From assembly GCA_934464615.1 (NCBI GenBank), contig CAKSKA010000001.1, forward strand, positions 103,159-167,158: a stretch of 64,000 bases of DNA. Reading direction: 5' to 3'. The DNA comes from an uncultured Eubacteriales bacterium. GTDB lineage: Bacteria; Bacillota; Clostridia; Oscillospirales; Acutalibacteraceae. The position numbers and the translations under genes are program-made. A model generated the notes under the pieces. The model saw nothing but the letters and a program-made list of their open reading frames with translations, made no database searches and had not been told where the DNA came from. This document shows, one piece after another, positions 8,078-58,927 of this stretch (within the stretch, counting starts at the first letter, position 1; every line of letters starts with the position of its first letter).

Positions 8078-9115
8078 CTATTCCTCCATGCCGCTTAGGG
8101 TTTCGGTCAACAGTTCGTTCATACGTTTTGCCGTGTATTCAATACTGGGCAAAATTTGCTCGTACGACATCCTTGTAGGACCTATTACGCCTAAACATCC
8201 TTCATTATTATTACCTGCACGGTATTTTGCAAAAACTATGCCGGTGGGGCGAAGCGCACTGTATGACGTTTCACCGCCGAAAACCACGCCGGCATCTGCA
8301 CTTGATTTGCCTAAAAGCGACAACAATGTATCCCTCTTGTGCATAAGCGCAATAATTTTTTCCGCATATCCCGACAGGAAACTTATATTGTATAAAGCCG
8401 ATTGACCGCTTATACTTACTGCGGAGTTTTCCATATCCGAAATCATAACGCTTAATGTTGAAAACAACGGCATTACGCTGAGTGCCTGAATTCCCAGAGA
8501 GGAAAGCGCCGTTTGAAGCGCAGCGGGATTAAGCTGCGAAATGTTTTTACCTTTAACAAACTCGTTTACCAGTTTATCAAACTGATGTGTAACGTCATAT
8601 GATAAAACATCTGCCGTATGGCACAGCCGACTTCTCGAATGTCCGTCCGAGGTTATAAGAATTATCATTGCAAGACGGTCGGAAAGCTTTAAAAGTTCAA
8701 CCCGTTTTACCCTCGGTCCGGCAGGGGAAATATCCGCTGCTATGGAAGGCAACCCCGTTATTTGACTTAAAACTTTTCCGGCGGTGTCGGGCAATGCGTC
8801 CGGATCTCCCGCAACCTTAGTAAGCGAACTGTCTATATATCCGCGAAGCTCGTCACTCAGCAAATCCTTATCCATAAGCGTTTCTACGTATAATTTATAT
8901 CCTGCGGCAGTCGGAATTCTGCCTGCCGATGTGTGCGGCTGATCGAGAAATCCCAAATTGCAAAGCGTACTCATTTCATTCCTGAGTGTTGCGCTTGAAG
9001 GGGCATTCTCCATAACCTCGCACAGCAGTTTAGAGCCTACCGGCTCGCCTGATATAATGTACATACGTACTATAGCGGCAAGTATTTGCTGCTGCCTTTT
9101 GGAAAGCGTCATCAT
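8078..9115 (-). CDS. hrcA: Heat-inducible transcription repressor HrcA
   Basis: HrcA-like N-terminal winged helix (RQQQILAAIVRMYIISGEPVGSK). First gene of the dnaK operon, preceded by CIRCE. Confidence 0.95.
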   Translation of the reverse strand: MMTLSKRQQQILAAIVRMYIISGEPVGSKLLCEVMENAPSSATLRNEMSTLCNLGFLDQPHTSAGRIPTAAGYKLYVETLMDKDLLSDELRGYIDSSLTKVAGDPDALPDTAGKVLSQITGLPSIAADISPAGPRVKRVELLKLSDRLAMIILITSDGHSRSRLCHTADVLSYDVTHQFDKLVNEFVKGKNISQLNPAALQTALSSLGIQALSVMPLFSTLSVMISDMENSAVSISGQSALYNISFLSGYAEKIIALMHKRDTLLSLLGKSSADAGVVFGGETSYSALRPTGIVFAKYRAGNNNEGCLGVIGPTRMSYEQILPSIEYTAKRMNELLTETLSGMEE

Positions 9116-26901: not shown

Positions 26902-26907
26902 AAAAAT

Positions 26908-27235
26908 GAGTTAATTGAACGGCTGCGTGTGGCAACACATGAGGAAAGTCCGAGCCCCGCAGGACAGGATAGCAGCTAACGGCTGCCGATGGTGACATTA
27001 GGGAAAGTGCAACAGAGATATACCGCCGCATATTAAGCGGTAAGGGTGGAAAGGCGAGGTAAGAGCTCACCGGCTGTCCGGAGACGGAACAGCCCTGTAA
27101 ACCCTATCCGGAGCAACGCTGACAAAGGCTATACACTTGTCCGGTGTGCCTTGAAAAGCGGCTTGAGCGTCGGAGCGATCCGACGTCGAGACAGATAGTC
27201 GTTCACGACAGAACTCGGCTTACAGATTAACTCGT
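26908..27235 (+). ncRNA. rnpB: RNase P RNA, bacterial type A
   Basis: Universal GAGGAAAGTCCG (P4 5' strand), GGTAAGAGCTCACC, and 3' ACAGAACTCGGCTTACAG. Terminal P1 pairing GAGTTAAT / ATTAACTC. Confidence 0.9.
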
Positions 27236-27237
27236 TT

Positions 27238-27267
27238 AAAAGCAATGCATTTTACGGCATTGCTTTT
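27238..27267 (+). terminator. Intrinsic terminator after rnpB
   Basis: AAAGCAATGC-attttacg-GCATTGCTTTT. Confidence 0.75.
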
Positions 27268-41300: not shown

Positions 41301-41635
41301 TGCGTTCCGTAGGACTTGAGGACAAAGCGGACTGTACTGCCGCAAAACTTACCTTGTGCGAACAGCAAAAGGCGGCAATAGCAGGGGCGGTTGCTAAAAA
41401 TCCGCAAATAATACTGTGTGACGAACCGCTTGGAAAACTTAAGCAAAGCGATGCCGCCGAGGTTTTAAATCTTTTAAGAGAAACCTGCAGACTTACAGGC
41501 AAAACCGTAATAATTGCTACGGATAATAAAGCGCTTTGTGCGGCGGCTGACCGTGTTATAACGATCAGCGACGGCTGTATTACGGCAAACGAAGTAAATC
41601 CGAAACCGGCAAAGCTTGAAGAAATAGAGTGGTGA
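38387..41635 (+). CDS. Large cytoplasmic protein: ~850-aa uncharacterised (glycosidase-like) N-terminal module fused to a degenerate ABC ATPase domain
   Basis: The C-terminal ~230 aa have Walker A GPTGSGKTT and Walker B ILCDEP, but FIFKD for the Q-loop, LTLCEQ for LSGGQ, and ATDN for the H-loop. No TM segment or signal peptide is evident. The N-terminal module has jelly-roll-like GxNxIxIR strands. Confidence 0.8.
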   Translation: MKQYDIFAGADELFGKNADSYVTYAPNLSQGVVFDKRFLNSLKDGAKYGARALKCIRITEDCDLPARIIGFYKVEDGLARKCKYADVGAFAVYSEILPGSLNLVNPKAAQYAFSAAALKNPSAKFYCVNNDFFAPVPVWSSVIKKTYMQKYGQDITENLIMLFEDAKGCKRFRNRYYALTAELVTDNFLRPLKDICVGSGISLYGSKAFSLSVAEQVLPNNALIGICDIYDKLFLYCPAELLDGAFLRRYIRFFTSFKPQKIAAVFSDNDIKKLSLKRLAAFADRLLAGGIRQFCIPQGTAQKGTDGKKVQILKKYIQNNAALLDTGERISDVLAIYPYSSAAGNFCANNIGAVKEFNTVTQKGIDLLNRADILYDVASERSLGQEIKISGALISAANNKYTCLVLMPCDTLTPTAAGFILKYTENGGRVYCIGEKPLLIDGVQNSRIDEISQRIKRIGAKEISQLRAERTPLFDDNCIDVYCCKLPDGSKLSFAANINGDSGSVSFASFENIAAVDTVNRELLPVNLSNKIGKVAGKQVIDLKNFENSHAVFRIGDIPLQKPKQPEYLNLSPYFDLTDSGDNTFVINKCSVRKTNGKWSAPTCIKNALKNMQRASRKNITDLKFDFEIRDCEKIGDMLLYFENQAPYSVFINDIPVKTAGEPTDIREFVKEGVNSILIRSESLVQRLKTEETAISCLFISGKFAVVSTAPVRNEKFAVRTKNEFVITALPAAVNIERLTENGFWFFGSDMLLTQRFTLEGEPDSAALLRFKKFNALCACVCVNGVDTADIWAPPFKTNVGKYLRKGENEISIRIFADNTNLHALDGITDDNVSLEPLGAVLFTGDEEQTDYICLKDVTKTYVDGGKTIYAVRDADINIGIGEFTVIYGPTGSGKTTLLNIIGGIDTCDSGTVCIEENDINEYSESRLADYRRKNISFIFKDGNLLDYLTVNDNITLFCDSKNQVLDNRLVLRSVGLEDKADCTAAKLTLCEQQKAAIAGAVAKNPQIILCDEPLGKLKQSDAAEVLNLLRETCRLTGKTVIIATDNKALCAAADRVITISDGCITANEVNPKPAKLEEIEW

Positions 41636-41639
41636 AAAT

Positions 41640-44558
41640 ATGATTTTTAAGTTGTTAAAAAAGGAAATTGTCGGGAATATCGGCAGATTTGCATCCATAG
41701 CCTTAACCACACTTATAGGCGTTGCGTTTCTGTCGGGATTCTGGTCCGGTGTGCCGGATATGGAAAAAACGGCAGACGACTATTATATTAATTCAAATTT
41801 TCACGATATTAAAATAAATTCGGACAAAGGCTTTACAAAACAGGATTTAAAAGCAACCGAGGATCTGGATTATGTAAAAAAAGCACAGGCGGTATATTCG
41901 TTTTACTGCCTTGCCGGTATAAACGAAGCCGGCAGTTATACAACGTATGTAAGAAGCGTTAATATGGATACGCTTCAGGCAAATGATGCCGGTATAATAG
42001 ATACTCCGCAGCTTATTGAAGGCAGTTATCCCGTTACAAACAATACCTGCCTTATGGTACGCTCGGCAGCGCTTAAATCCGATGTTAAAATAGGCGACAG
42101 AATATATTTAACCACAAATACGGATAACTGCACAACCACCGTGTTTACCGTAACGGGTTTTGTAAGCGATCCGGAATTTACATCGGGAATAAAGGAAAAT
42201 GCGCCCGTAGGCAGCTCTAAAACCGAGATGGCAATTTATGTAAGCGAAAACATTTTTGTACCCGATGCAATGTATAACGAAATATTGTTAAAACTCAATA
42301 CGACACTCTCGCTTTCTTCTTTCGGTAAAAAATATGCGTCTGCCGTGCAGGAAGCAAAAACACAACTTTCCCTTATAGGCGAACAGCGCTCAAGCGATTT
42401 CAGCAATGATATGTCAGGTCAGTATCAAAGCGACATTGATAAAGCGCAAAGGCAGTACGAGTATATTAAAAGCGAATCCGAAGGCAAACTTAAATCTTTA
42501 AAAGACGCAATAGCCGCTGCCGAAAAAAGAATACCGGAACTTGAAACCGAAATTGAGGCGGCCAAGGCCGACCTGCAACAAAAAAAGCAAGAACTCGATA
42601 AAGTGTCCGCAAACGCTTCGGGACGTGTAACGTCCGGTACCGCAAGCGCCGCCGGCGAGACGGGCTCGTCATCTTCTTCGTCTTCCGCACCGTCGGCTCC
42701 CGCGCAAGACAGCGAGTATGAAAAGGCGCTTGCCGCATACAACAGCGCGCAGGAAGCATTAAACCAAAAAGAAAAAGAACTTGATAACAAACGTAATTCT
42801 TTGGTTACCTATAAAGCGGAATATACGGCGCTTGAAAAAACTTATGAGCAGCGGATGAACAGTGCCGAAAGAAATCTTGAACAGGTAACGAGTGACGGCA
42901 GCGATGACTACACGCAGGCATGGTATGTATATACAAGGGACGATAACGTAAGCTATAAGAGTTTTGTTGCAAATATTAATAAAATAAAGGCTATGGCATT
43001 TTTGTTCCCGCTGCTTTTTTACAGTGTTGCAATAGCGGCGGTGTTAAGTACCGTTACGCATACATTTACACAACAGCAAAAACGCATGGGGCTTATGCTG
43101 GCACAAGGACTTAACCGTAAAACCGTATTTGTACATAACTGCGCTTTTGTGCTTTCGGCAACCCTTGCCGGAAGCGTAGTCGGTTGTATATTGGGTATAA
43201 CGGTATTGCCGCAAATTATGTACCGCACATACAGCGTTGTATTTGATTTTCCGCCCATAAAAATACGCTTTGTGCCGTATGTTGTTTTGGGCAGTATTGT
43301 TTTAACGGTTTTGCTTGTGCTTGCGGTATCCGTATTAAAGCTTAAAGACCTTATTAAGCAAACGCCGGCAAGCCTTATACAGCAAAAGCAGTATGTAAAA
43401 GGCAAAAAAGTACCGGCGGAAAAAGGTTTTATTTGTAAAAGACTGAACATACAGTGGAAAACTGCCGTTAGGAATGTATCGCTTTATAAAGGCAGGGCAT
43501 TTGTATCGCTTTTAAGCATTGCAGGGTTTACCGCCCTTATTTTTGCATCATTCGGAATTTTAAATTCGGTAAGTTCGCTTGAAAATAAACAGCACAATTT
43601 GCAGCCTTATGACGTTTCGGTGCAGCTGCGTGTTGCCGATTATACATCCAAACCCGAAATTATGCAGTATTTGGAAAACGGGGAAAAGGTAAGCGATTAC
43701 ACATATGTTCATACCGCACAGGTAAAGACGCTTGTAAACGATAAAACAGTGGAAATTACGGTATATGCACCGACGCAGACCGACAAATTCACACAGTTTA
43801 TAAAACTGGATTCTGCCATAGGCAAAAACGAACTCGGCAGCAGCGATGTAATAATAAGCCGTAATTTTGCAAAGCAAAACAAGGTAAAAAAAGGCGACGG
43901 ACTTACGTTTATTATAGGCGGCAAGCAAACCGAGCTTACGGTAACTGCAATAGTGAAAAACTATATAGGCAATTTTGCCGTGGTGGGCTCCGATATATAT
44001 TCCGACAGTTTTGCCGACGGTAAATTTACACCTGCATTGCTTATTAAAAACAGCAGCAGTATTGAAGATACCGCACAACAGGCAACCGAACTTATGGGTA
44101 CGGGCGACGTCGGCACGGTAAATTATACTGCGGATACATTCGGCATTTTTAAGGGAACTGCCGAAAGACTTACAAAAGTTATAATAATGCTTATAATAAC
44201 CGCAGGTGTTTTGTGTGTGGCAGTGCTTTATTCGGCAGCGGATATAAATATTTGTGAGCGCACTGCCGAGTTTGCAAGGCTGCAGATACTCGGTTGCGGC
44301 AAATCCGGCGCAGCGGCTTATGTTTACCGCGAAAATGCAATTATTGCGGCGCTCGGCCTTATTATAGGACTTATTGCCGGTGTAATTTTAAATACGGCGG
44401 TAATGTCGGCTGCGGATATGAGCGATGTAATGTTCAGCAGAAGTATAAGTCCTGTCTCTTTTGCGGCGGCAATAGCTGCGGCTGTGGTTTTTGTACTTAT
44501 ACTTAATACCGCAACAAGGATAAGGATAGGCAAAATAAGCACGGAGGATACAAACTAA
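41640..44558 (+). CDS. ABC transporter permease with two fused FtsX/MacB-type 4-TM units
   Basis: Eight predicted TMs arranged 1+3 / 1+3. There are large extracytoplasmic domains after TM1 and TM5. The first carries a coiled-coil hairpin split by a Ser-rich linker (GETGSSSSSSSAPSAP). Starts 4 nt after the upstream stop. Confidence 0.85.
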   Translation: MIFKLLKKEIVGNIGRFASIALTTLIGVAFLSGFWSGVPDMEKTADDYYINSNFHDIKINSDKGFTKQDLKATEDLDYVKKAQAVYSFYCLAGINEAGSYTTYVRSVNMDTLQANDAGIIDTPQLIEGSYPVTNNTCLMVRSAALKSDVKIGDRIYLTTNTDNCTTTVFTVTGFVSDPEFTSGIKENAPVGSSKTEMAIYVSENIFVPDAMYNEILLKLNTTLSLSSFGKKYASAVQEAKTQLSLIGEQRSSDFSNDMSGQYQSDIDKAQRQYEYIKSESEGKLKSLKDAIAAAEKRIPELETEIEAAKADLQQKKQELDKVSANASGRVTSGTASAAGETGSSSSSSSAPSAPAQDSEYEKALAAYNSAQEALNQKEKELDNKRNSLVTYKAEYTALEKTYEQRMNSAERNLEQVTSDGSDDYTQAWYVYTRDDNVSYKSFVANINKIKAMAFLFPLLFYSVAIAAVLSTVTHTFTQQQKRMGLMLAQGLNRKTVFVHNCAFVLSATLAGSVVGCILGITVLPQIMYRTYSVVFDFPPIKIRFVPYVVLGSIVLTVLLVLAVSVLKLKDLIKQTPASLIQQKQYVKGKKVPAEKGFICKRLNIQWKTAVRNVSLYKGRAFVSLLSIAGFTALIFASFGILNSVSSLENKQHNLQPYDVSVQLRVADYTSKPEIMQYLENGEKVSDYTYVHTAQVKTLVNDKTVEITVYAPTQTDKFTQFIKLDSAIGKNELGSSDVIISRNFAKQNKVKKGDGLTFIIGGKQTELTVTAIVKNYIGNFAVVGSDIYSDSFADGKFTPALLIKNSSSIEDTAQQATELMGTGDVGTVNYTADTFGIFKGTAERLTKVIIMLIITAGVLCVAVLYSAADINICERTAEFARLQILGCGKSGAAAYVYRENAIIAALGLIIGLIAGVILNTAVMSAADMSDVMFSRSISPVSFAAAIAAAVVFVLILNTATRIRIGKISTEDTN

Positions 44559-47544: not shown

Positions 47545-47579
47545 AAAAAGGCGTTGAGAAGAAAATCTCAACGCCTTTT
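47545..47579. terminator. Bidirectional intrinsic terminator between proS and paralog 1
   Basis: AAAAAGGCGTTGAGA-agaaaa-TCTCAACGCCTTTT. Confidence 0.8.
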
Positions 47580-47591
47580 AATTTTGTAAAA

Positions 47592-49064
47592 TTATTTTAA
47601 ATATTTATATACCGCCGCAGTTTCAAAGCCTAATTCCGCAAAATCGGATTTGCTTTTTTCATCAAAGGCATAGTATATGCCGTTTACATTTGCAAACTGT
47701 TTTTTATACTTTTCAATGTAAATGTTGTTTTTAAATTTCGGCAGCTGCATATAAGCGGATTTGCCGTTGCCGGCTTTTGCACATATATCCAAAGTTCTTG
47801 CTGCGGGGCGGTCAAACACATTTTTTTCTATTACAAAATTTTCAGAATAGTTTTCGTGGTTTTGCCATGATTTAATGTATGCGGAATCAACCGTCTTGTT
47901 GCCGTGTCCGTATCCGCCCAGTCTGCAAAAATTGTAACCGAAATAAGTATTCACAAATCCGTTATCCGTTACGTTTGGTTGTGTATTAAAAAATTCAAAG
48001 GTGTATTCGCAAGTTTCAAACAGGCAATATCTTGTTATAAAATCGCGGAAAACGGATGGCTTTTCTTCATGCCAGTGATATTGCGGAGAAACGCCGGAAT
48101 CGAATTGCTGATAAATATAGCAATGGTCCCAGACAAAATTATCGCAGGAATGCCAGCAACCGCCGCCTCCTCCCATTCTGAGATGTTCGCCCGGGCGTGT
48201 ACAGTTACCGCCGCCCCAACCGAAAACGCAGTAACTTACTGTAATGTTGCGGCTGAAATTTGCCCAAAATGCTCCTCTGCCGTAAACAAATTCAATATTG
48301 TTAATACTTATATCGTGTGCATAATTTGTAGGATTGGTATCGGCAGGCCTTGAGTTCATATTTATACAAATTTCGCTGTATACCTCCGTCGGATTTCCCT
48401 CATCACAATACATATACAACTTGCCGTCTTTGTCCGGCTCACTTGCAAATTCGGTGTTTATCATAAAATCCGTATTCTTTTTAAGGTCTTTAAAATAATA
48501 CTTTTTATTGCCGTATGTACTGCCGTAGTTAAATACTATTTCCGGAATATCCGTATCCGGCAGCGGAATACTTAAACACCACACGTTTTTTATATTTGTC
48601 ATAACCCAGGCTGCGTAAGTCTTTCCGTCATAACATGCACGTATCTGCGGTTTCCTGCCCTCGCCGTAGGCGGAGTAACTTACACCGCTTGCCGCCTTTA
48701 AAACCCCGTAAAAGACATCATTACGGCGAAGATACACGGTATCCCCGTCGCAGTATTTATAAGAGTTTACCTTTTCAAGACTTGCCCAAGCCGTCTGCGG
48801 AGTTTTGCCGTCATTATTGTCATCGCCGTCTACGTTTACGTAATATGCTGTGTTTTTACAAGGCAGGGAATCATTATTGTACAATATCATATCCCGAAGA
48901 TCATCACCAAGCCTGTCTATATTGTTTATATATTCCGCTGTTGCAAAACCGTCGGCGTCATTTGCCAGCATATCAATTTTTTTGCTGTATTCATCCGTTG
49001 TCATAATATGTTTCGGAGGACAGTAGGGAATATAAGCGGTACTGTTAGAAAGTTTGCTATCCAT
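47592..49064 (-). CDS. Beta-helix-like protein family, paralog 1 (no signal peptide)
   Basis: Shares the family motifs YYV..DGDDNNDGK..TAW, GDTVYLRR, SYSAYG, DHCYIYQQFDSGVSPQY and CLFETCEYTFEFFN. Strong GAGAGGAG RBS. Has its own terminator. Confidence 0.85.
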   Translation of the reverse strand: MDSKLSNSTAYIPYCPPKHIMTTDEYSKKIDMLANDADGFATAEYINNIDRLGDDLRDMILYNNDSLPCKNTAYYVNVDGDDNNDGKTPQTAWASLEKVNSYKYCDGDTVYLRRNDVFYGVLKAASGVSYSAYGEGRKPQIRACYDGKTYAAWVMTNIKNVWCLSIPLPDTDIPEIVFNYGSTYGNKKYYFKDLKKNTDFMINTEFASEPDKDGKLYMYCDEGNPTEVYSEICINMNSRPADTNPTNYAHDISINNIEFVYGRGAFWANFSRNITVSYCVFGWGGGNCTRPGEHLRMGGGGGCWHSCDNFVWDHCYIYQQFDSGVSPQYHWHEEKPSVFRDFITRYCLFETCEYTFEFFNTQPNVTDNGFVNTYFGYNFCRLGGYGHGNKTVDSAYIKSWQNHENYSENFVIEKNVFDRPAARTLDICAKAGNGKSAYMQLPKFKNNIYIEKYKKQFANVNGIYYAFDEKSKSDFAELGFETAAVYKYLK

Positions 49065-49154
49065 AAAAAAACTCCTCTCAAATGATGTTGTCGATATAAT
49101 TAATATATCATAAAATTTCCGACAATTATATCAAAAAATAATTCATTTTTAAGT

Positions 49155-49196
49155 TAAAAAACGCAATAATCCCGTAATTTAAATTACGGGATTATT
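49155..49196 (-). terminator. Intrinsic terminator after paralog 2
   Basis: Minus strand: AATAATCCCGTAATTTAAATTACGGGATTATT followed by GCGTTTTTT. Confidence 0.75.
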
Positions 49197-49208
49197 TAAT
49201 TTTGACGT

Positions 49209-50756
49209 TTATTCGCTGTAAATATATACAGAGTCGGTATCTGCACCGGTTTTTATAAGTTTGTTGATTTCATTCTCGTTAAACTTATACATGACATTAT
49301 TAATATTTGCGAATTTTTTGTCTTTTTTCTGTATATAAATATTGTTGTTGATTTTCGGCATTTTTTCGTAACTTAAAGTATTGCCCGAAGCCGACTGCTC
49401 GTACGATATAACTTCGAGTGTTAAGGCTGCGGCACGATCAAACAGGTTATATTCTATTTGGCAGTCAATACAGGTGTTTTCGTGTCCCCATGATTTTACG
49501 TATGCGCTCATTGAAGTCTTTGTGCCGAAACCGTAACCGCCTTTGCGGCACAGATTGTATGCAAAATACATACCTTCAAAACGGTTTTCAAGTGTATTTT
49601 TTTGGGAATTAAAGTACTCAAGGGTATATTCGCAGCCTTCAAACAAGCAGTTGGTGGTTTTAAAATCTTTAAATACAGACGGTGCTTCTTCCTCTCCGTC
49701 ATACTGGGGAGAAACACCGGAGTCAAACTGCTCATAAAAATAGCAGTGATCGTAAACAAAGTTATCGCAGCCGTGCCATGCACCGCTTCCGCCGCCGTAT
49801 CTTACGCCGCCTTTGGTGTCGGCAAATCCGCCGCACCAACCTATTATGCAGTAGGACATAAGTATATTTTGACTGTCTGTCGGCCAGAAAGGTCCGCGGC
49901 CGTGCAATAATTCAAGGTTGTTTATTGTTACATCATGCAGTTTTTTACCCGATGTTATTACCTGTGTATCAAGCGGTAATTCAATATCTGCAAAGACCTC
50001 TCCGGGATTTCCACCGTCGTAATAAACGTAAGCGCACATATCAATTTTGCCCTCTTCAACGGTAGGACCGCAGTATACAAAATCAAAATTCTTACTTAAT
50101 TTTGAAGGTTTTACTTTTTTGTCACCGCAGATTTCGTTGCCGTCTTTGTCGGTAAATAAAATATGTCCCATATCCTGTTGGGAGAATCTTTTGCTGTACT
50201 TCCATACGTTTTCTGTATCGGTCTTTTCCCAAGTGCCGTTGTCAGGGCCGTTTGTTGAGGCTACTATTCTCGGTTTATAACCCTCGCCGTAGGCGGAATA
50301 AGTCATTCCGTTCCTTGCAGACAGCGAACCGCGGAATGTATCTCCGCGACGGAAAAGGACGGCATCGCCTTCATTATAAGTATTCATACTGTTTACTTTT
50401 TCAAGAGTTTTCCATGCCGTTTTTTCCGATTTACCGTCGTTATTGTCATCACCGTCGTTAGATACATAGTAAGCGGTACCGGTAAAGGAAACGGATTCCT
50501 CATTGTATTTTATCTGTTCTTTAAGACGGTCGGTAAGATCGTCGACCTTTTTGTTAAACGCATCATCGGCAGTTGAAAAATTTGCGGTTTTAAGCAAATC
50601 CTTAAGTTCTGCCTGATACTCCTCGGTTGTCATTATGTTTTTAGGCTTAACGTACTTGTCTCCGTCTCCGCCGCCTTTTGTTTTTTTACAGGCTGATGCG
50701 GTAAAAATCAGGCAAATACATAAAATGAGTGCAGATAAATTTTTAATTTTTTTCAT
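49209..50756 (-). CDS. Beta-helix-like protein family, paralog 2 (lipoprotein)
   Basis: Signal peptide with a lipobox-like TASAC. The same family motifs are present. AAGGAG RBS. Confidence 0.85.
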   Translation of the reverse strand: MKKIKNLSALILCICLIFTASACKKTKGGGDGDKYVKPKNIMTTEEYQAELKDLLKTANFSTADDAFNKKVDDLTDRLKEQIKYNEESVSFTGTAYYVSNDGDDNNDGKSEKTAWKTLEKVNSMNTYNEGDAVLFRRGDTFRGSLSARNGMTYSAYGEGYKPRIVASTNGPDNGTWEKTDTENVWKYSKRFSQQDMGHILFTDKDGNEICGDKKVKPSKLSKNFDFVYCGPTVEEGKIDMCAYVYYDGGNPGEVFADIELPLDTQVITSGKKLHDVTINNLELLHGRGPFWPTDSQNILMSYCIIGWCGGFADTKGGVRYGGGSGAWHGCDNFVYDHCYFYEQFDSGVSPQYDGEEEAPSVFKDFKTTNCLFEGCEYTLEYFNSQKNTLENRFEGMYFAYNLCRKGGYGFGTKTSMSAYVKSWGHENTCIDCQIEYNLFDRAAALTLEVISYEQSASGNTLSYEKMPKINNNIYIQKKDKKFANINNVMYKFNENEINKLIKTGADTDSVYIYSE

Positions 50757-50890
50757 ATAAGCGCTCCTTACATCTTTATAGGATAATTATAACATATAAA
50801 AATAAATAAATATAGCAAAAAATAACTTATTTATTTGTACAAATTAAACTTGTTTTATGTATTAATCGGATGTAAAAATGAAATATATAT

Positions 50891-50921
50891 AAAAAAACCT
50901 CCCGTGTAACTGCACGGGAGG
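50891..50921 (-). terminator. Intrinsic terminator after paralog 3
   Basis: Minus strand: CCTCCCGTG-cagtta-CACGGGAGG followed by TTTTTTT. Confidence 0.8.
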
Positions 50922-50933
50922 GGGGAAACAGCG

Positions 50934-52364
50934 TTATTCGCTGAATATATACACGGAATCAATGTCGGCGTCAAGTCTTTCAAGTGTAATTTTTGCAGCC
51001 TTATTGAATTTGTATATAATATGATTAATGTTTGCAAAGTTTTTATTGCTCGGTTCAATATAAACATTGTGAGAAAGTTTGGGGATACTTCCGTAATCTA
51101 CTTCAAAACCGCAATCGCCGAAATCATGTCCTATTATTTCAATAGACATATCGGCTGCACGGTCAAATATATTGTGGGCAATTTCGCACTTTTTACAGGT
51201 GTTTTCGTGTCCCCAGGATTTAACATACCTGCTTTGTGTTGTCTTGTCACCGAAACCATATCCGCCCTTACGGCAAATGTTATAATTAAATACCATGTTG
51301 TCGTAGCCGTTAAATCTTACGGGCTTTTGTGTATGGAAATATTCAAGGGTATATTCACAATTTTCAAATACACAATCAGTTGTTTTAAAGTCTTTAAAAA
51401 TGCCGGCTGTTTCATCTTTCCAGTGGTATTGCGGTGTAACGCCCGAGTCAAATTGCTGGTAGATATAGCAGTGGTCAAATGTCATTTTATCACAGGAAAG
51501 CCATCCGCCGCCGCCGCCGCCGTAGCGTATTTGTTCTTTTTTGCTTATAAGCATACCGCCGGTCCAACCGCAAACGCAATAACTCATAGAAATGTTTTTA
51601 CTGTTTGCGGTAAAGAAAAAGTCCTGTCCGTAGCGCAGCTCAAGGTTTTTAATGGCAATATCGTGCGCATTACCGCCTATTGTTATAATACTTGCGTTGC
51701 TTTTACTGCGGCGGCTTATATCTATTTGATTGAATATATCGTTCGGGTTGCCCTTTTCGCAGCGTAAATACAGTTTATTGTCAAACGGTTCCTCGCTTGA
51801 AACTTCACCTGCAAATACAAAGTCAAGATCGTTTTTAAGGTCTTTAACACTTAATTTCTTTTCTGCATAACATTCGCCGTCGTTAAAGACTATAACGCCT
51901 ATGTCAAAATCGTTATCCAGCACTTTACTGTAGCACCAAATTCCTTCTGTGTCGGTCTTTTCCCAAGTGCCCAGCTTACCGTTATGCGCCCAAAATACCT
52001 GCGGTTTTGCGCCTGTGCCGTAAGCGGAATATGAAACGCCGTTTTGCGCAACTATATTTTCATACCATGTATCGCCTCTGCGCAGTAAAAGTGCATCGCC
52101 TGCAGTAAATGTGTGGGAATTGGCTTTGCCGAGGGTTTTCCACGCTGTTTCGGGGGAAGTACCGTCGGCACTGTCGTCACCGTCATTTGATACATAGTAA
52201 TTTGTTCCCGACTCGCTGCGTAAATCATCTGTATTTGCGCGAATCATATCTTTTGCATCCTCGGTAAGTTTATCAAGTTTATTGTAAAATTCTTCGTCTG
52301 CCGTAGTAAAATCAGGTGTTTTTGCAAGTTCTTCTATAGCAAGGCGATATTGCTTTTCATCCAT
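50934..52364 (-). CDS. Beta-helix-like protein family, paralog 3 (no signal peptide)
   Basis: Family motifs present. Starts at the Met that is internal in the lipoprotein paralogs. AAGGAG RBS, 19 nt after the paralog 4 stop. Confidence 0.85.
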   Translation of the reverse strand: MDEKQYRLAIEELAKTPDFTTADEEFYNKLDKLTEDAKDMIRANTDDLRSESGTNYYVSNDGDDSADGTSPETAWKTLGKANSHTFTAGDALLLRRGDTWYENIVAQNGVSYSAYGTGAKPQVFWAHNGKLGTWEKTDTEGIWCYSKVLDNDFDIGVIVFNDGECYAEKKLSVKDLKNDLDFVFAGEVSSEEPFDNKLYLRCEKGNPNDIFNQIDISRRSKSNASIITIGGNAHDIAIKNLELRYGQDFFFTANSKNISMSYCVCGWTGGMLISKKEQIRYGGGGGGWLSCDKMTFDHCYIYQQFDSGVTPQYHWKDETAGIFKDFKTTDCVFENCEYTLEYFHTQKPVRFNGYDNMVFNYNICRKGGYGFGDKTTQSRYVKSWGHENTCKKCEIAHNIFDRAADMSIEIIGHDFGDCGFEVDYGSIPKLSHNVYIEPSNKNFANINHIIYKFNKAAKITLERLDADIDSVYIFSE

Positions 52365-52383
52365 AATGAATTCTCCTTAATTC

Positions 52384-53802
52384 CTATTTGCTGTAAATAA
52401 ATCGGTTATCCTCTGCAAATTTTAATTCTTCAAAATCGGCATAGGTAGTTTCGTCAAAGGCATAGTCTATTTCATTTACGGTTGCAAAAGGCTTGCCTTT
52501 TGGCTCTACAAATAAATTTTGCTTTATAAGCGGAAGTTGACTGTATGAAAAACTGCGGTCATTGTTTCTGGCACAAATCGAAATTGAATGTTCGGCAGCC
52601 TCGAAAAACACATTATTTTCAATAACGCAGTTTTTACTGTGATTTTTATGGTTTTGCCAGGCTTTTAAATATGCGGAGCCGTTTGTCTTATCACCGAATC
52701 CGCAGCCGCCGTTAAAGCACAAATTATAACCGAAATACATATTTTCAAATAAATCGTCGTCGCGGTTTGTTTGCGTCTGGAAATATTCAAGCGTGTATTC
52801 GCATTTTTCAAAAAGGCAGTCAGTCGTTATAAAATCTTTAAAAATGCTGGCGTCGGCTTCACGGTAATGGTATTGCGGGGTAACGCCGGAATCAAACTGT
52901 TGATAGATATAACAGTGGTCAAAAACCATATTATTACAGGAATGCCAGCATCCCGCGCCGCCGCCGAAACGCAGCGGATTATCTTTGCTGATATATGCGC
53001 CGCCGGTCCAACCGCAAATGCAATAACTGACAAAAATATTTTTGCTGCCGGCGACAAAGAAAATATCATGTGCGTAGTTAAGTTCCAGATTTTTTATTGT
53101 AATGTCATGCGCACCGCCCGGCATTTTTATAATGCTTGCCTGAGTTTTGGTTATAAAACTGATATCTATATTGTCAAACACTTCATTCGGGTTTCCCTCG
53201 TCGCATCTGAGGTACAACCTGCCGTCCGCCGCATCATCACAAGGGAATATATAAACAAAATCCAGATTATCGGTTATATGCTTTAAAGTGTACTTCTTTT
53301 GTGCGTACTTCTCGCCGTTGTTAAATACAATAACACCTATGTCCTTATCGGCTAATTTGCAGTCGTAAAGCCAAATGCCGTCGGTTTCGGTCTTTAACCA
53401 TGCATTTTCTTTGCCGTTATGGGCAGCGTAAACTTTCGGTTTTGCACCGCTGCCGTATGCCGAGTATGTAACTCCGCTTTGCGCCGTCATATTCTCATAC
53501 CATTTATCTCCGCGGCGCAGCAACAGTGCATCACCACTGTTGTATTTATGCTCGCACGCTCTTTTAAGCGTTTTCCATGCGGTGTCGGGGGATAAGCCGT
53601 CTGCGTCGTCATTTCCTTGGGATTCTGAAACGTAATAGTTTGTACCGTCCAAGCTTGACGCGTCATCGCGGTTTTCAGTTATCATTTTGCGCAAGTCGTC
53701 CCTAAGGCTGTTTAATTTATCATAAAACACATCTGTTGCAGTTGAAAAGTTTTCTGTTTTACAAAGTTCAAGCAGACGCTCTCTGTATTCTTTTTCAGTC
53801 AT
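52384..53802 (-). CDS. Beta-helix-like protein family, paralog 4 (no signal peptide)
   Basis: Family motifs present. ATG 53802 lies behind GGAGG. The longer tracked ORF (to 53874) would overlap paralog 5. Confidence 0.82.
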   Translation of the reverse strand: MTEKEYRERLLELCKTENFSTATDVFYDKLNSLRDDLRKMITENRDDASSLDGTNYYVSESQGNDDADGLSPDTAWKTLKRACEHKYNSGDALLLRRGDKWYENMTAQSGVTYSAYGSGAKPKVYAAHNGKENAWLKTETDGIWLYDCKLADKDIGVIVFNNGEKYAQKKYTLKHITDNLDFVYIFPCDDAADGRLYLRCDEGNPNEVFDNIDISFITKTQASIIKMPGGAHDITIKNLELNYAHDIFFVAGSKNIFVSYCICGWTGGAYISKDNPLRFGGGAGCWHSCNNMVFDHCYIYQQFDSGVTPQYHYREADASIFKDFITTDCLFEKCEYTLEYFQTQTNRDDDLFENMYFGYNLCFNGGCGFGDKTNGSAYLKAWQNHKNHSKNCVIENNVFFEAAEHSISICARNNDRSFSYSQLPLIKQNLFVEPKGKPFATVNEIDYAFDETTYADFEELKFAEDNRFIYSK

Positions 53803-53824
53803 AAATTCCTCCGTGAAAACAAGG

Positions 53825-55366
53825 TTATTCGCAGAACATATAAACGGCACCGGTCTCAACTCCGAGTCTTTCAAGTTCCTCGTATGTCTTTTCGTTATAT
53901 TTATAGGTTATACCGTTTATATTCGCGAACTTTTTATCTTTTTTCTGAATGTATATATTGTTGTTCAGTTTCGGAATACGCTCATAACTCTTTGTATTGC
54001 CGGATTCAGACTGCTCATAACCTATTATTTCAAGCGTATTGGAGGCTGCACGGTCGAATACATTGTACTCTATTTTGCAGTCATAGCAGCTGTTTTCGTG
54101 TCCCCAGGATTTTACATAAGAGCTTGCCGAGGTCTTATCACCGAAACCGTAACCGCCTTTTCTGCAGAAGTTATAACCAAAGTAAAAATTCTCAAAGCTG
54201 TTTTTCAAGCTGTTTTTCTGGGTGTTAAAATATTCAAAAGTGTACTCGCAAGCCTCGAACAAGCAGTCTGCTACTTTAAAGTTTTTAAATATTGCGTCAA
54301 CATCATCACTGCCGTTATATTGCGGAGAAATGCCGGCATCAAACTGTTGCTTAAAATAGCAGTGGTCGTAGGTAATTGTGTCGCAATCCCTCCAAGCGCC
54401 TCCGCCTCCGCCGAGTCTTGTGTTATTGCTGTCATAGTTTCCGCCAACCCACGAGGACTGACAATAACTCATTGTAATGTTTGTATATCCTGTGCTGAAG
54501 AAGTGGTCGGTACCGAAATACAGGTCAAGATTATTAAAAGTTATGTCGTGTGAACCCGCTGCAAGACGTAATTGCTCGTTTCCTACAGAAAATTCAATGG
54601 TATCAAATCTTTCTGCAGGGTTGCCTTCGGTGCTGTACATATAAACTTTAAAGTCCACCGGTCTGTCGGTAGCTTTGCCGAACATATATGTAAATTGTTT
54701 GTCCTTTTTAAGCTTGCTGCGGCCGGATACCTTATCAGCATAATCTTCGTTTTCGGTGCCTACATTAAATACAACACTGCATATATCCTGCGCGCTTAAT
54801 TTTTCGCTGTACACCCAAATATTTTCGTCGTCTGTCTGTGTCCACTCTCCCTCTTTGCCGTCTATGGAGCAGTAGAACTTAGGCTTGAATCCCGTTCCGT
54901 ATGCGCTGTAAGAAACGCCGCTTTGCGCGGATATACTGCCTCTCCAAAATCCGCCGCGTTCAAACAGAACAAGGTCGCCTTCGTTTAATTTTGTACTGTT
55001 AATTTTATCAAGCGTAGCCCAGGCAGTGCTTTCCGATTTACCGTCATTACTGTCGTTGCCGTTATTTGATACATAGTATTTTGTACCGGTACATTCGGTA
55101 ATGTCATCGGTATTGTATTTTATCATTTCTTCAAGCCTGTTTCCGATTTCGTCGATCTTTTTAAGTCCGGTTTCGTCAAGGGTAGAGAAATTCTGCGTAT
55201 CAAGCAGCTTTTGCAGTTCGGAATGATATTCCTCCGTAGTCATAAGGTTTTCGGGGATAACAAACTTGCCGTCACCCGTACTGCTTTTGCTGCCGTTGCA
55301 GGCGCAAAGCGTTAAGCACATGCAAACAGCAATAAACAATGCCGATAATTTTACGGTTATTTTCAT
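53825..55366 (-). CDS. Beta-helix-like protein family, paralog 5 (lipoprotein)
   Basis: Signal peptide with lipobox LCAC. Family motifs present. Closest to paralog 6. Confidence 0.85.
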   Translation of the reverse strand: MKITVKLSALFIAVCMCLTLCACNGSKSSTGDGKFVIPENLMTTEEYHSELQKLLDTQNFSTLDETGLKKIDEIGNRLEEMIKYNTDDITECTGTKYYVSNNGNDSNDGKSESTAWATLDKINSTKLNEGDLVLFERGGFWRGSISAQSGVSYSAYGTGFKPKFYCSIDGKEGEWTQTDDENIWVYSEKLSAQDICSVVFNVGTENEDYADKVSGRSKLKKDKQFTYMFGKATDRPVDFKVYMYSTEGNPAERFDTIEFSVGNEQLRLAAGSHDITFNNLDLYFGTDHFFSTGYTNITMSYCQSSWVGGNYDSNNTRLGGGGGAWRDCDTITYDHCYFKQQFDAGISPQYNGSDDVDAIFKNFKVADCLFEACEYTFEYFNTQKNSLKNSFENFYFGYNFCRKGGYGFGDKTSASSYVKSWGHENSCYDCKIEYNVFDRAASNTLEIIGYEQSESGNTKSYERIPKLNNNIYIQKKDKKFANINGITYKYNEKTYEELERLGVETGAVYMFCE

Positions 55367-55395
55367 ATTTTTTTCCTCTTCTATATGCGGTTTAA

Positions 55396-56931
55396 TTATT
55401 CGCAGAAGAAATAAACCGCACCCGTTTCAACACCGAGTTTTTCAAGTTCCTCGTATGTTTTTTCATTGTATTTATAGTTGGTTCCGTTTATGTTCGCAAA
55501 TTTTTTGTTCTTTTTCTGTATATAGATGTTGTTATTCAGTTTCGGAATACGCTCATAACTCTTTGTATTTCCGGATTCCGCCTGCTCATATCCTATTATT
55601 TCAATAGTAGTAGAAACTGCACGGTCAAATACATTGTATTCTATTGTGCTGTCGTAGCAGGTGTTTTCATGTCCCCAAGATTTAATATAAGCGCTTTGCG
55701 ACGGCTTATCGCCGAAGCCGTAACCGCCGTTCCTGCAGAAATTGTAACCGAAGTAGAGATTTTCGTATCTGTTATCAAGATGGTTCTTTTGTGTGTTGAA
55801 ATATTCAAGCGTGTATTCGCAGCTGTCAAACAGGCAGTCCTTTGTTATAAAGTCTTTAAATACGGCTGCGGTTTCCTCCTGAGAGTTGTATTGCGGAGTA
55901 ACGCCTGAGTCAAACTGTTGCTTAAAATAGCAGTGGTCGAATACAAGATTGTCACTGTCGCGCCAAGAGCCGCTGCCGCCGCCGAGTCTGACAAGATTTC
56001 CGTCATATGCGCCGCCTGCCCAGTTTGATATGCAGTAAGACATTATTATATTTTTAGGCGATGTTGCCCAATAGCCGTTCATACCGAAGTACATATTGAG
56101 GTTGTTGAGGGTTATGTCGTGTCCGCCGTCGGGAATGCTTACCTGTTCACCGGCCAAAGATATTTCTATTGTGTTGAATCTTTCCGCCGGATTTCCCTCG
56201 GTGCTGTACATATAAATTTTAAAGTCTATCGGTCTGTCGGTAGCTTTTCCGTACATATATGTAAACTGCATATCCTTTTTCAGTTTTTCACGTCCGGATA
56301 CTTTGTCGGCGTATGTTTCGGTTTCCTCGTCAACATTGAAAACAAGACTGCATACATCCGCTGTGCTCATTTTTTCGCTGTAAACCCAAATGTTTTCGTC
56401 TTCTGTCTGCGTCCATTCGCCGCTTTTGCCGTCTGAAGAACAGTAGAATTTAGGCTTAAATCCTGTGCCGTATGCACTGTAGGAAACGCCGCTTTGCGCA
56501 GATATGTAGCCGCGCCAAAAACCGCCGCGCTCAAACAAAACAAGGTCACCTTCCTCAAGTCGTGTATTGTTTACTTTTTTAAGTGTAGCCCACGCAGTTT
56601 CGGGAGTTTTGCCGTCATTATCGTCGTTACCTTTATTTGATACATAGTATTTTGTACCGGTACATTCGGTAATGTCCTCGGTGTTATATACTATCATTTC
56701 TTCAAGTCTGTTACCGAGTTCGTCAATTTTTTTAAGTCCCTCTTCATCAAGTGTGGAGAAGTTTTGCGTATCAAGCAGCTTTTGCAGTTCTGCATGATAT
56801 TCTTCCGTAGTCATAAGATTTTTAGGAACGACAAATTTGCTGTCGCCTGTACCGCCTTTGCTGCCGTTGCAGGCACAAAGTAACATGCAAAGGCAAATCG
56901 CCATTGCTGTCAGTTTTAAAAATTTTTTCAT
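55396..56931 (-). CDS. Beta-helix-like protein family, paralog 6 (lipoprotein)
   Basis: Signal peptide with lipobox LCAC. Family motifs present. Confidence 0.85.
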   Translation of the reverse strand: MKKFLKLTAMAICLCMLLCACNGSKGGTGDSKFVVPKNLMTTEEYHAELQKLLDTQNFSTLDEEGLKKIDELGNRLEEMIVYNTEDITECTGTKYYVSNKGNDDNDGKTPETAWATLKKVNNTRLEEGDLVLFERGGFWRGYISAQSGVSYSAYGTGFKPKFYCSSDGKSGEWTQTEDENIWVYSEKMSTADVCSLVFNVDEETETYADKVSGREKLKKDMQFTYMYGKATDRPIDFKIYMYSTEGNPAERFNTIEISLAGEQVSIPDGGHDITLNNLNMYFGMNGYWATSPKNIIMSYCISNWAGGAYDGNLVRLGGGSGSWRDSDNLVFDHCYFKQQFDSGVTPQYNSQEETAAVFKDFITKDCLFDSCEYTLEYFNTQKNHLDNRYENLYFGYNFCRNGGYGFGDKPSQSAYIKSWGHENTCYDSTIEYNVFDRAVSTTIEIIGYEQAESGNTKSYERIPKLNNNIYIQKKNKKFANINGTNYKYNEKTYEELEKLGVETGAVYFFCE

Positions 56932-56995
56932 TTTTTACCTAACCTTTCTTTTCCGCATAGGGATTTTTATAAACAGCACATTTTGTGCAATTATA

Positions 56996-58543
56996 CTATT
57001 CGCAAAACAAATAAACGGAGCCATGTTCAATACCGGTTTTTTCAATATCAAAATATGTTTGCTTATTGTATTTATAATCGGTCTTGTTTATTATGGCAAA
57101 GCGTTTATCCGCTTTTTGAATATATATATTATTTTTAAGCTGCGGCATATGCTCAAAACTCAGTTCGGTTTTACCGGACGCTTTTGTATAGCCGTTTATT
57201 TTTATTGTGCTTAAAACAGGTCTGTCAAACAAATTGTATTCCATACAACTGTCATAAAAACAGTTCTCTCCCACATCGGCCTTTATGTATGCACTTTGCT
57301 GCGGTTTTGTACCGAAACCGTATCCGCCGTTTCGGCAGAAATTATAACCGAAATACAGGTTTTTATAGCAGTTATCCGATTTTTTGGGTTGTTGGTTAAA
57401 ACACTCAAGTACGGTATCGCAATATTCAAATATACAATGGCTTACGCTGAAATCCTTAAAAATAGCGGAAGCTTCGTCCAGATCCGTACGATACTGCGCC
57501 GTAACCGAAGTGTCAAACTGCTGATAAAATCGGCAATATTTAAAACTTATGCCGTCACAATCCCGCCATGCACCGCTGCCGCCGCCGTATCTTACATTAT
57601 TTGCGTCATAATGACCACCAACCCAGGAGGAACAGCAGTAACTCATACTTATGTTTTTAAGCGAAGTGCCCCAAAATCCGTCAATTCCGAAATAGAGATC
57701 GAGATTGTTAAAAGCAATATCATGTGCGCCGTTTGCAACGGATAACTGGTGGTTGTCAACGGAAAATTCAATGGTATCAAATCTTTCAGCAGGGTTGCCT
57801 TCGGTACTGTACATATAAATTTTAAAATCTATCGGTCTGCCGGTGGATTTTCCGCCCATAAATGTAAACTGTAAATCTTTTTTTAGTTTTTCGCGGTTTT
57901 CCATTTTTTCGGCATACGCTTCGCCTTGGGCGCCTGCATTAAATACGATACAGCCTATATCGCTTGCACTCAGTTTTTCGTTGTATACCCAAATATTCTC
58001 GTCGTCCGTCTGCGTCCATCCGGCGCTTTTACCTTCTATTGAACAGTAGAATTTCGGCTTAAATCCCGTGCCGTAAGCGCTGTAGGAGATACCGCTTTGG
58101 GCAAATATTGTGCCGCGCCAAAAACCGCCGCGTTCAAACAAAACAAGGTCGCCGTCATTAAAACGGTAATTGTTGATTTTTTTCAGCGTTGCCCAAGCCG
58201 TTTCAGGCGATTTGCCGTCATTATCGTCGTTACCGTTGTTGGATATATAATACTTTGTACCGGTACATTCGGTAATTTCTCCGCCGCTGTAAATTATCAT
58301 TTCATTAAATTTGTCACCAAGCTCGTCAATCTTTCCAAGCGCGTTTCCGTCAAGCGTAGTAAAGTTTTCCGTATCAAGTAAATGCTGCAGTTGTGTGTGG
58401 TATTCTTCCTCTGTCATAAGATTTTGAGGTTTTGCAAACACATTATTGCCGACATCACCGTCATTGCCGCTGCCCTTATCGCAGCCGCAAAACAATATAC
58501 ACAGGCAAAGAAGTATCAAAATGCCGAGATTAGTTTTTTTCAT
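56996..58543 (-). CDS. Beta-helix-like protein family, paralog 7 (lipoprotein)
   Basis: Signal peptide with lipobox FCGC. Family motifs present. First gene of the run. Confidence 0.85.
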   Translation of the reverse strand: MKKTNLGILILLCLCILFCGCDKGSGNDGDVGNNVFAKPQNLMTEEEYHTQLQHLLDTENFTTLDGNALGKIDELGDKFNEMIIYSGGEITECTGTKYYISNNGNDDNDGKSPETAWATLKKINNYRFNDGDLVLFERGGFWRGTIFAQSGISYSAYGTGFKPKFYCSIEGKSAGWTQTDDENIWVYNEKLSASDIGCIVFNAGAQGEAYAEKMENREKLKKDLQFTFMGGKSTGRPIDFKIYMYSTEGNPAERFDTIEFSVDNHQLSVANGAHDIAFNNLDLYFGIDGFWGTSLKNISMSYCCSSWVGGHYDANNVRYGGGSGAWRDCDGISFKYCRFYQQFDTSVTAQYRTDLDEASAIFKDFSVSHCIFEYCDTVLECFNQQPKKSDNCYKNLYFGYNFCRNGGYGFGTKPQQSAYIKADVGENCFYDSCMEYNLFDRPVLSTIKINGYTKASGKTELSFEHMPQLKNNIYIQKADKRFAIINKTDYKYNKQTYFDIEKTGIEHGSVYLFCE

Positions 58544-58730
58544 ATCAGTTGTCCCTTTATATAATGTACTTTAATATATAAATATAATTTATAGATAAAA
58601 TAGGAAAAGCATAATAAACAAAAATATCGCCTAACATAACCATTATACAGTGTGATTTTACCATATATAAACGACTATTTCAATAAGAAATTAATTTTTT
58701 AAAAAAAAATAAAAAATAGTGAAAAAACAC

Positions 58731-58759: not shown

Positions 58760-58927
58760 CTATCAGTACGTTACTGCGTACAGATATGCGATGATGTGGG
58801 AGGTGGCTGACCTCGAGTCAGGGAATTTCCACGGAGTATGTCCGATTTTAAACCGGGCGATAGAAACTTATCAACCAAGAGCTTACGGTACTTGCGAACC
58901 GTACAGCACACGGCTGCAAAGCCGTAC

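Follow-up and report, generated by a model that had tools for sequence, protein, structure and literature searches.

Seven Tandem β-Helix Paralogs beside the S10 Operon of an Uncultured Eubacteriales Bacterium: a Candidate Glycoside Hydrolase Family Distantly Related to GH136

RESULTS

Gene layout and transcription signals of the array

A 64-kb stretch of core chromosome from an uncultured Eubacteriales bacterium (contig CAKSKA010000001.1; the whole stretch is referred to as the window) carries seven successive minus-strand open reading frames (ORFs) of 472 to 515 amino acids at positions 47592 to 58543, between aroC-proS and the S10 operon (rpsJ-rplC-rplD). The genes were named par1 (proS side) to par7 (rpsJ side), and their products are predicted to consist of a short helical head and a right-handed parallel β-helix, which we consider a candidate new family of glycoside hydrolases (GHs) with a distant kinship to GH136. 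An original prediction, made from the letters of the sequence, had described the number, sizes, orientation, and location of these genes and a shared architecture. All of this was reproduced in the ORF list and its flanks, and every motif quoted was found in an alignment of the seven paralogs, whose pairwise identity ranges from 40 to 76%, par5 and par6 being the closest pair. No additional copies were found in the rest of the window.

The spacers between the genes, from par7 to par1, are 64, 29, 22, 19, 177, and 144 nt, the first four exactly as predicted, and a Shine-Dalgarno-like sequence precedes all seven start codons. Par1 has a 20-residue N-terminal extension that is common to its own clade of homologs. 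A longer, TTG-started version of par4 reaching position 53874 was rejected as a mechanical artifact, since it runs into par5 and since the source contig, when its genes were called independently, likewise yielded a protein of 472 residues. A hairpin scan agreed with the prediction that terminators follow only par3, par2, and par1 (Table 1): no terminator-like hairpin was found after par6, par5, or par4, and only a weak 5-bp hairpin was found after par7. Computationally, this pattern is consistent with a five-gene unit (par7 to par3) plus two single-gene units, par2 and par1, and the hairpin common to par1 and the convergent proS is likely a bidirectional terminator. Candidate promoters were found upstream of par7 and par1. 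Those of par7 lie in the 492-nt par7-rpsJ intergenic region back-to-back with the promoter and leader of the S10 operon, all within some 100 to 150 nt of very AT-rich sequence. Plus-strand antisense ORFs were also detected within the paralog genes. Their translations are low in complexity and hydrophobic, and such ORFs turn up against one and the same conserved region in several of the paralogs. They resemble shadows of the coding frame rather than genes.

TABLE 1 Coordinates and descriptions of the array genes, their candidate transcription signals, and other features of the window
Feature	Position	Strand	Description	Basis
par7	56996..58543	-	515 aa, lipoprotein type, signal peptide end ...LFCGC|D; heads proposed five-gene unit	ORF, alignment, tree
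par6	55396..56931	-	511 aa, lipoprotein type, ...LLCAC|N; 76% identity to par5	ORF, alignment, tree
par5	53825..55366	-	513 aa, lipoprotein type, ...TLCAC|N	ORF, alignment, tree
par4	52384..53802	-	472 aa, without signal peptide; start is the ATG of MTEKEY, ggagg ribosome binding site	
par3	50934..52364	-	476 aa, without signal peptide; closes proposed five-gene unit	
par2	49209..50756	-	515 aa, lipoprotein type, ...FTASAC|K; probably monocistronic; protein used for modeling	
par1	47592..49064	-	490 aa, without signal peptide; adjoins proS; probably monocistronic	
Terminator-like hairpin after par3	50898..50921	-	CCTCCCGTG...CACGGGAGG then T7; 9-bp stem; intrinsic type	
Terminator-like palindromic hairpin after par2	49165..49196	-		
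Hairpin between convergent proS and par1	47546..47579	.	Scored on the plus strand; A4 and T4 flank the stem	
Two overlapping sigma-70-like promoter candidates upstream of par7	58642..58683	-	TTGAAA-17-TAAAAT with extended TG; TTTATA-18-TATAAT	Consensus match only
Promoter-like sites upstream of par1	49107..49152	-	TTAAAA-16-TATAAT with TG; TTGATA-16-TATGAT	Consensus match only
S10-Clostridia ribosomal-protein leader	58783..58863	+	RF03136, 41.8 bits	
Antisense ORFs within paralog genes	51021..51767, 53813..54553, 52771..53286	+	171 to 248 aa	
ABC ATPase and FtsX/MacB-type permease genes	38387..44558	+	1082 aa and 972 aa	
Bacterial class A RNase P RNA	26907..27238	+	RF00010, 262.8 bits	
GH77 4-α-glucanotransferase ORF	2375..3856		Pfam E 7.5e-176, residues 8 to 472	
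tRNA-Ile(GAT) call	3036..3111	+	Probably a false positive	ARAGORN

Predicted fold and structural neighbors

The AlphaFold2 model of Par2, built from a 76-sequence alignment, has a predicted local distance difference test (pLDDT) score of 94.2 and a predicted TM-score of 0.90, and the head and the β-helix are both confident. In the model, a helix formed by the signal peptide is followed by a disordered linker, then by a head of two helices (residues 44 to 54 and 65 to 83), and finally by a β-helix that starts near residue 95 and continues to the C terminus. The β-helix has a regular three strands per coil from residue ~95 to residue 491, within a body of ~420 residues that reaches residue 515. 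With its stacked three-strand coils, and with β-helix proteins as the only significant Foldseek matches, it is of the right-handed parallel (pectin-lyase-like) type. The helical head and the β-helix, both of which had been proposed from the sequence, were therefore borne out by the model and by the Foldseek search made with it. In the PDB, the top matches were the GH120 enzyme XylC, four GH136 lacto-N-biosidases, and the GH141 enzyme BT_1002 (E values of 5e-9 to 5e-7), followed at lower ranks by capsule lyases, GH110, GH28, and polysaccharide lyases (PLs). A viral library returned generic tail-fiber and depolymerase β-helices in a similar score range.

None of the seven paralogs reached the threshold of any Pfam model. 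The best match was PF13229 Beta_helix at 13.7 bits against a gathering threshold of 25.9, a threshold that some multidomain relatives do pass. No NCBIfam model reached its threshold either, LnbX giving a partial match only. The description of the family as uncharacterized therefore stands insofar as the paralogs have no functional annotation and profiles place them in no characterized family; it needs the qualification that a known relative, GH136, is detectable over the first ~100 residues of the β-helix (see below). Conserved Cys residues recur once per coil in the cytoplasmic and exported clades alike, and because of this recurrence in both clades the Cys-rich block seems likelier to be an internal Cys stack than a metal cluster or a set of disulfides.

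Family size, conserved residues, and a candidate active site

There were 288 relatives in a word-indexed search, all of them unnamed or "hypothetical" and mostly from metagenomic Clostridia. An exhaustive search with a profile yielded 2,285 cluster representatives (50% identity) at E≤1e-30; at the looser cutoff of E≤1e-10 there were 11,996, and the lower-scoring among these may include proteins that share only the N-terminal region, such as GH136 enzymes. The family thus runs to thousands of members, spread through Clostridia and extending into Bacteroidota, and many of the relatives are multidomain proteins of 700 to 2,700 residues with the array-type module at one end. By their source names, related proteins would come from animal-gut Clostridia, a point without direct bearing on a human milk oligosaccharide niche. 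No characterized member of the family was found in the literature searched.

Residue conservation was examined in ~147 diverse representatives (Par2 numbering). D345 (in QQFDSG) was conserved in 142 of 147 (97%), Q351 (in PQY) in 139 of 147 (95%), and E380 (in CEYTxEYF) in 138 of 144 (96%), and all three are kept in each of the seven window paralogs. Other residues were also highly conserved, namely, K161 and W176 (100%), R319 (96%), E259 (95%), and an Asn ladder of N401, N437, and N472 (~100%). Judging from the strand periodicity of the Par2 model, D345 and Q351 on the one hand and E380 on the other lie in equivalent strands of successive coils, which is the usual site of catalytic residues in β-helix glycosidases. 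D345 and E380 are the likeliest candidates for the catalytic carboxylates.

Two clades and in situ expansion of the locus

In a neighbor-joining tree that combines the seven paralogs with 77 close homologs, a deep split separates a lipoprotein clade (par2, par5, par6, and par7) from a clade without signal peptides (par1, par3, and par4). The four lipoprotein-type N termini begin with MKK and a hydrophobic stretch, followed by a lipobox (ASAC, LCAC, LCAC, and FCGC, respectively) and a Gly/Ser/Asp-rich linker, which in the Par2 model has a pLDDT below 50. By the same inspection of the pattern, a lipoprotein signal is present in 50 of 84 close homologs. This split was absent from the original prediction, whose surface location applies to the four lipoproteins and not to Par1, Par3, and Par4, which belong to an old, separate clade. 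A dual translation start at an internal Met, which would yield a cytoplasmic isoform of the lipoproteins, was rejected, the site being conserved only as M/L/I with no ribosome binding site upstream.

The tree also shows par5, par6, and par7 to be a lineage-specific triplication, and par2 and par3 to have orthologs elsewhere (61% for par2; 68%, P0049, for par3) that are closer to them than is any array paralog. In the youngest pairs, the ratio of nonsynonymous to synonymous substitution rates (dN/dS) is 0.14 to 0.18 with dS above 1 (0.14 for par5/par6); dS is saturated for the other pairs. These values indicate that the copies are old, functional, and under purifying selection (dN/dS ≈0.15), and on the same grounds recent amplification and pseudogenization were rejected.

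The head-to-head position with rpsJ is kept in five contigs of related genomes, in which RplC and RplD are 88 to 95% identical. The number of copies at this locus varies: there is one in L016, two in L017, three in L003, five in L002, and seven in the window. A good example of the conserved synteny is L017, where the order is that of the window, with rpsJ, a lipoprotein copy, a cytoplasmic copy, and then proS-aroC-acpP-FtsX-ABC. Because synteny is conserved while copy number varies, the locus is ancestral and was expanded in situ. This disposes of the earlier view that the array is inserted between two conserved loci, whereas a lineage-specific expansion holds for the copy number of the locus and not for the family, which is widespread. 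The arrays in the other genomes are likewise unannotated. The very large ATP-binding cassette (ABC) ATPase and the FtsX/MacB-type permease encoded upstream of acpP-aroC-proS in the window form a block that is also syntenic in L017. In the Oscillospiraceae metagenome-assembled genome SIG565, extra tandem pairs, 28 to 29% identical to the window paralogs, occur at L001:4411-7580 and L004:712-3692; at least 12 family copies were seen over four loci, the five-copy rpsJ array included. Expansion of the family is therefore genome-wide in the SIG565 lineage.

Two further calls lie elsewhere in the window. An RNase P RNA gene was identified, and a tRNA-Ile(GAT) call falls inside the ORF of a GH77 4-α-glucanotransferase (Table 1).

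N-terminal homology to GH136

Among known proteins, GH136 enzymes alone showed significant sequence similarity to the array proteins, in a region corresponding to residues ~83 to 190 of Par2. The sequence matches in the PDB had E values of 1e-21 to 6e-13 over ~100 residues (1e-21 to 4e-14 for 7v6m, 6kqs, 7v6i, and 5gqc), and those to the NCBIfam LnbX model NF047897 had E values down to 4e-11 and scores of 23 to 41.5 bits against a cutoff of 2500, at model positions ~35 to 147 of 1498. With hhalign, the probability of homology to GH136 was 97.9 to 99.8%, with the per-column confidence falling to ~0 past residue ~180 of Par2. The catalytic acid/base and nucleophile of GH136 are an Asp pair, D568/D575 in ErLnb136 (PMC7335108), and the enzymes require a helical partner, LnbY/GH136I (PMC7335108, PMC8106489). 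The corresponding D-x6-D sequence GNGDGQAWDAD was present in fetched GH136 sequences, for example, BsaX (P0276). Neither any of the seven paralogs nor the family consensus contains it, and a forced profile-profile alignment places it within an insertion. Nor was an LnbY/GH136I gene or domain found, and there is no further ORF inside the array. With homology confined to the N-terminal region, the D-x6-D motif and the partner missing, and scores far under the LnbX cutoff, membership in GH136 was rejected; the sequences indicate that the paralogs share N-terminal ancestry with GH136 and are not members of it.

The possibility that the helical head is a miniature or fused LnbY/GH136I was also considered and found unsupported, in what is a weak test. 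The hhalign probability against a putative GH136I partner (L015:7894-8712) was 0.1%, for a single sequence and a short segment; a HMMER alignment that ran on into α8 and the linker of ErLnb136I had low identity and was unconvincing; and no fused GH136I-II proteins occurred within the GH136 set examined. This set was gathered with a rebuilt Bifidobacterium LnbX gene and includes the crystallized B. saguini enzyme. The gene in question (L007:7875-13015, on a metagenome scaffold) is of the LnbX type and has a frameshift near position 8400 and a run of N, and the gene caller gives a 154-residue fragment for it. A search with a 110-residue LnbX fragment returned short fragment ORFs only, which may be explained by gene fragmentation of this kind.

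Functional clues from fusions and neighborhoods of relatives

Among 39 multidomain relatives, 18 were fused to SLH domains. The other fusion partners were type I dockerin, PF00756 esterase, GDSL/SGNH acylhydrolases, α/β-hydrolases of the prolyl-oligopeptidase and dienelactone-hydrolase types, Cu_amine_oxidN1, and BspA-type leucine-rich repeats (LRRs). In Sunxiuqinia indica (Bacteroidota), a homolog lies in the middle of a polysaccharide utilization locus (PUL) with SusD, GH88, a Hepar_II_III lyase, GH3, GH97, a SASA esterase, GH31, and GH78. Two metagenome contigs have homologs beside GH127, GH35 or GH43, GDSL esterases, and AraC regulators, and another homolog adjoins a GDSL esterase gene. 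Such fusions and neighbors are of the kind found with carbohydrate-active enzymes (CAZymes), and they argue that the module is catalytic and acts on esterified complex glycans, probably plant derived. The glycan-active role originally suggested is backed by them; for an adhesin-like role, suggested along with it, no support was found.

Distant members of the family also lie near an orthologous pair, a short glycyl-radical enzyme (GRE) and its activase, at three independent loci (L018:6261-8989, L013:15600-18319, and L009:4720-7756), in the first of which the family gene begins 12 nt past the activase. The GREs are 656 to 687 residues long with 54 to 60% identity across the three loci, and they score under every NCBIfam cutoff; the models that come nearest are HypD and those of the PFL2/glycerol-dehydratase class. 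A GH127 gene is likewise present at two of the three loci and a GH43 gene at one; the window lacks the GRE pair. The pair looks like an uncharacterized GRE subfamily linked to glycan catabolism, and nothing on a GRE-GH127 link was found in the literature searched.

DISCUSSION

The reading that we favor, at a probability of roughly 60%, is that the seven paralogs are β-helix enzymes that cleave glycosidic bonds in complex glycans and belong to a candidate new GH family distantly related to GH136. In each protein, the two-helix head packs on the ~420-residue β-helix, and substrate binding and catalysis would take place on the face of consecutive coils that bears D345, Q351, and E380. Par2, Par5, Par6, and Par7 would be exported, lipid anchored to the outer face of the membrane, and attack polymers or large oligosaccharides, whereas Par1, Par3, and Par4 would remain in the cytoplasm and complete the breakdown of imported fragments. 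A division of this kind between surface and cytoplasm would parallel GH136 systems, in which extracellular as well as intracellular forms occur (PMC7335108). The copies may differ in linkage or substrate specificity, as suggested by the fact that the duplicates are old, divergent, and under purifying selection. Going by the relatives, the substrates are likely esterified plant-cell-wall or glycoprotein glycans.

Several observations weigh against this reading. First, the TM-score to every solved GH is low (0.25 to 0.44 in the Foldseek PDB search), and there is no close structural relative. Second, the confident homology to GH136 is limited to the N-terminal cap and the first coils. Third, a shorter start motif, YYVS..GDD.NDG, is common to many β-helix proteins, weakly including phage baseplate proteins; it also occurs weakly in DUF1565 and Pel9A-like proteins, and the Pel9A-like Pfam model is matched below threshold in relatives. 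Finally, no transporter, regulator, or other CAZyme was found beside the array, either in the window or in the contexts of its closest relatives; the closest homologs, like the array itself, sit among housekeeping genes, and because of this the substrate of the array is argued by homology only.

The paralogs could instead be polysaccharide lyases, performing β-elimination on uronic-acid polymers with a conserved Arg/Lys base and with acidic residues that bind Ca2+. The β-helix is the fold of PL1, PL3, PL6, PL9, and PL31, R319 and K161 are near-invariant, and the Foldseek list also includes K1 capsule lyase, the rhamnogalacturonan (RG) lyase 5olq, Pel9A, and alginate lyases. The homolog in the Bacteroidota PUL lies beside GH88, a processor of lyase products. 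However, the top structural relatives and all significant sequence relatives are hydrolases, with the lyases lower in both Foldseek rank and TM-score, and the Sunxiuqinia PUL already has its separate Hepar_II_III-type lyase. The sole sequence match to PL1, PL3, or PL9 is an N-terminal one of 45 residues to 5olq (E 0.006), and the most conserved polar residues are Asp, Glu, and Gln and not a Ca2+-binding Asp cluster with Arg. We therefore regard lyase chemistry as unlikely.

A different question is whose glycans are cleaved. If they were those of the bacterium's own envelope (capsule, secondary cell-wall polymer, or S-layer glycan), the enzymes would serve remodeling or recycling and not dietary or host nutrition. 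The array's place next to the S10 operon, a core-genome position conserved in five related genomes and free of nearby transporters, regulators, or other CAZymes, fits this, as do close homologs elsewhere among FtsW, Mur ligase, Ddl, and other envelope or housekeeping genes and the frequent fusion of relatives to the wall-anchoring modules SLH or Cu_amine_oxidN1; the pairing of surface and cytoplasmic copies would suit turnover and recycling too. Such a role appears rather improbable in view of the dockerin and esterase/GDSL fusions, the Bacteroidota PUL, and the GH127/GH43/GH35 neighborhoods, which indicate exogenous plant-type glycans, and of the five to seven divergent copies, which are more typical of CAZymes for nutrient acquisition.

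It is very unlikely that the proteins are noncatalytic surface adhesins or glycan binders of the PfbA type. β-Helix adhesins do exist, four copies are surface lipoproteins, and relatives bear BspA-type LRR modules, but three of the seven copies and their entire ancient clade have no export signal, acidic and polar residues are near-invariant over ~150 diverse representatives, and the esterase fusions and catabolic-cluster positions fit enzymes; the PfbA matches themselves are insignificant (E 0.02 to 0.06, probability 0.1 to 0.2). That they are true GH136 lacto-N-biosidases, releasing lacto-N-biose from human-milk or mucin-type glycans, is highly improbable and as good as refuted by the absence of the catalytic motif and the partner, even though GH136 is the sole known family with significant sequence similarity and has both extracellular and intracellular forms. 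The LnbX match is also short (model positions 39 to 147 of 1498, 41 bits), and the profile-profile alignment has no confidence past the first coils. Remnants of prophage tailspikes or depolymerases were rejected, because the PHROG matches are weak and cover only the ~40-residue start motif and because the array lies in core chromosome with no phage context.

Within the favored reading of a GH136-related hydrolase, a more specific proposal can be made, which we hold only tentatively and judge doubtful as a whole. It is that the paralogs form a new CAZy family sister to GH136 and exo-acting, in which an Asp/Glu(/Gln) center on successive coils replaces the D-x6-D loop and the proteins' own head replaces LnbY/GH136I. 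They would then be exo-enzymes like the "biosidases" of GH136 and GH121, releasing short oligosaccharides, for example, β-L-arabino-oligosaccharides, from plant glycoproteins or pectic side chains, and the extracellular lipoproteins would feed the cytoplasmic set. In some lineages, this would be coupled to the uncharacterized short GRE.

For the discovery of CAZymes, the family offers a solid and useful lead, without being a categorically new type of system. Some 2,300 or more 50%-identity clusters hold the module and are annotated as "hypothetical" or named after an attached esterase only, so CAZyme profiling of animal-gut Clostridia probably misses a substantial and much-duplicated glycan-degrading capacity. 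The seven-copy array provides a natural set of surface and cytoplasmic variants for defining specificity, with D345 and E380 as mutational targets. The growth from one to seven copies at a fixed site beside the S10 operon is a clean natural case of in situ tandem expansion, and the kinship to GH136 could show how the dependence of GH136 on a helical partner arose.

Comparison with known systems

The systems that most resemble the array proteins do so to different depths. The phage tailspike and tail-fiber depolymerases and the DUF1565/Pel9A-like proteins have the same fold and share the short YYVS..G.D.N.G start motif, but the match is weak (E 1e-3 to 1e-5) and limited to ~40 residues, and the array proteins are without trimerization or particle-binding domains. 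The GH141 α-L-fucosidase BT_1002 (5MQP), from the rhamnogalacturonan-II PUL, is a β-helix GH that acts on a complex pectic glycan (E 2e-8, TMq 0.39 to 0.41), and the GH120 β-xylosidase XylC (3VST), the best Foldseek match (E 4.7e-9, TMq 0.44), is another β-helix GH, with its catalytic Asp and Glu on neighboring coils. The likeness to both is at the level of the fold only (TMq 0.39 to 0.44): no sequence match to GH120 or GH141 was found even at E≤10, the root mean square deviation is ~12 Å for BT_1002 and 8 Å for XylC, and GH120 has an extra β-sandwich domain. The GH136 enzymes (LnbX of B. longum, BsaX, TnX, and ErLnb136; 5GQC, 7V6I, 7V6M, and 6KQS) share more. They have in common with the array family the right-handed β-helix, the homologous cap and first coils (GTxYYVS-GDDxNDG-S...W/FKTLxKVN...GDxVLxxRG...AYGxGxKP), occurrence in gut Clostridia, and the existence of extracellular and intracellular forms (for GH136, PMC7335108). 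In contrast, the body of the array proteins is ~100 residues shorter and has no alignable catalytic region, D345 and E380 being conserved instead, 35 residues apart on successive coils, and a built-in two-helix head of 45 residues stands in place of the LnbY/GH136I partner.

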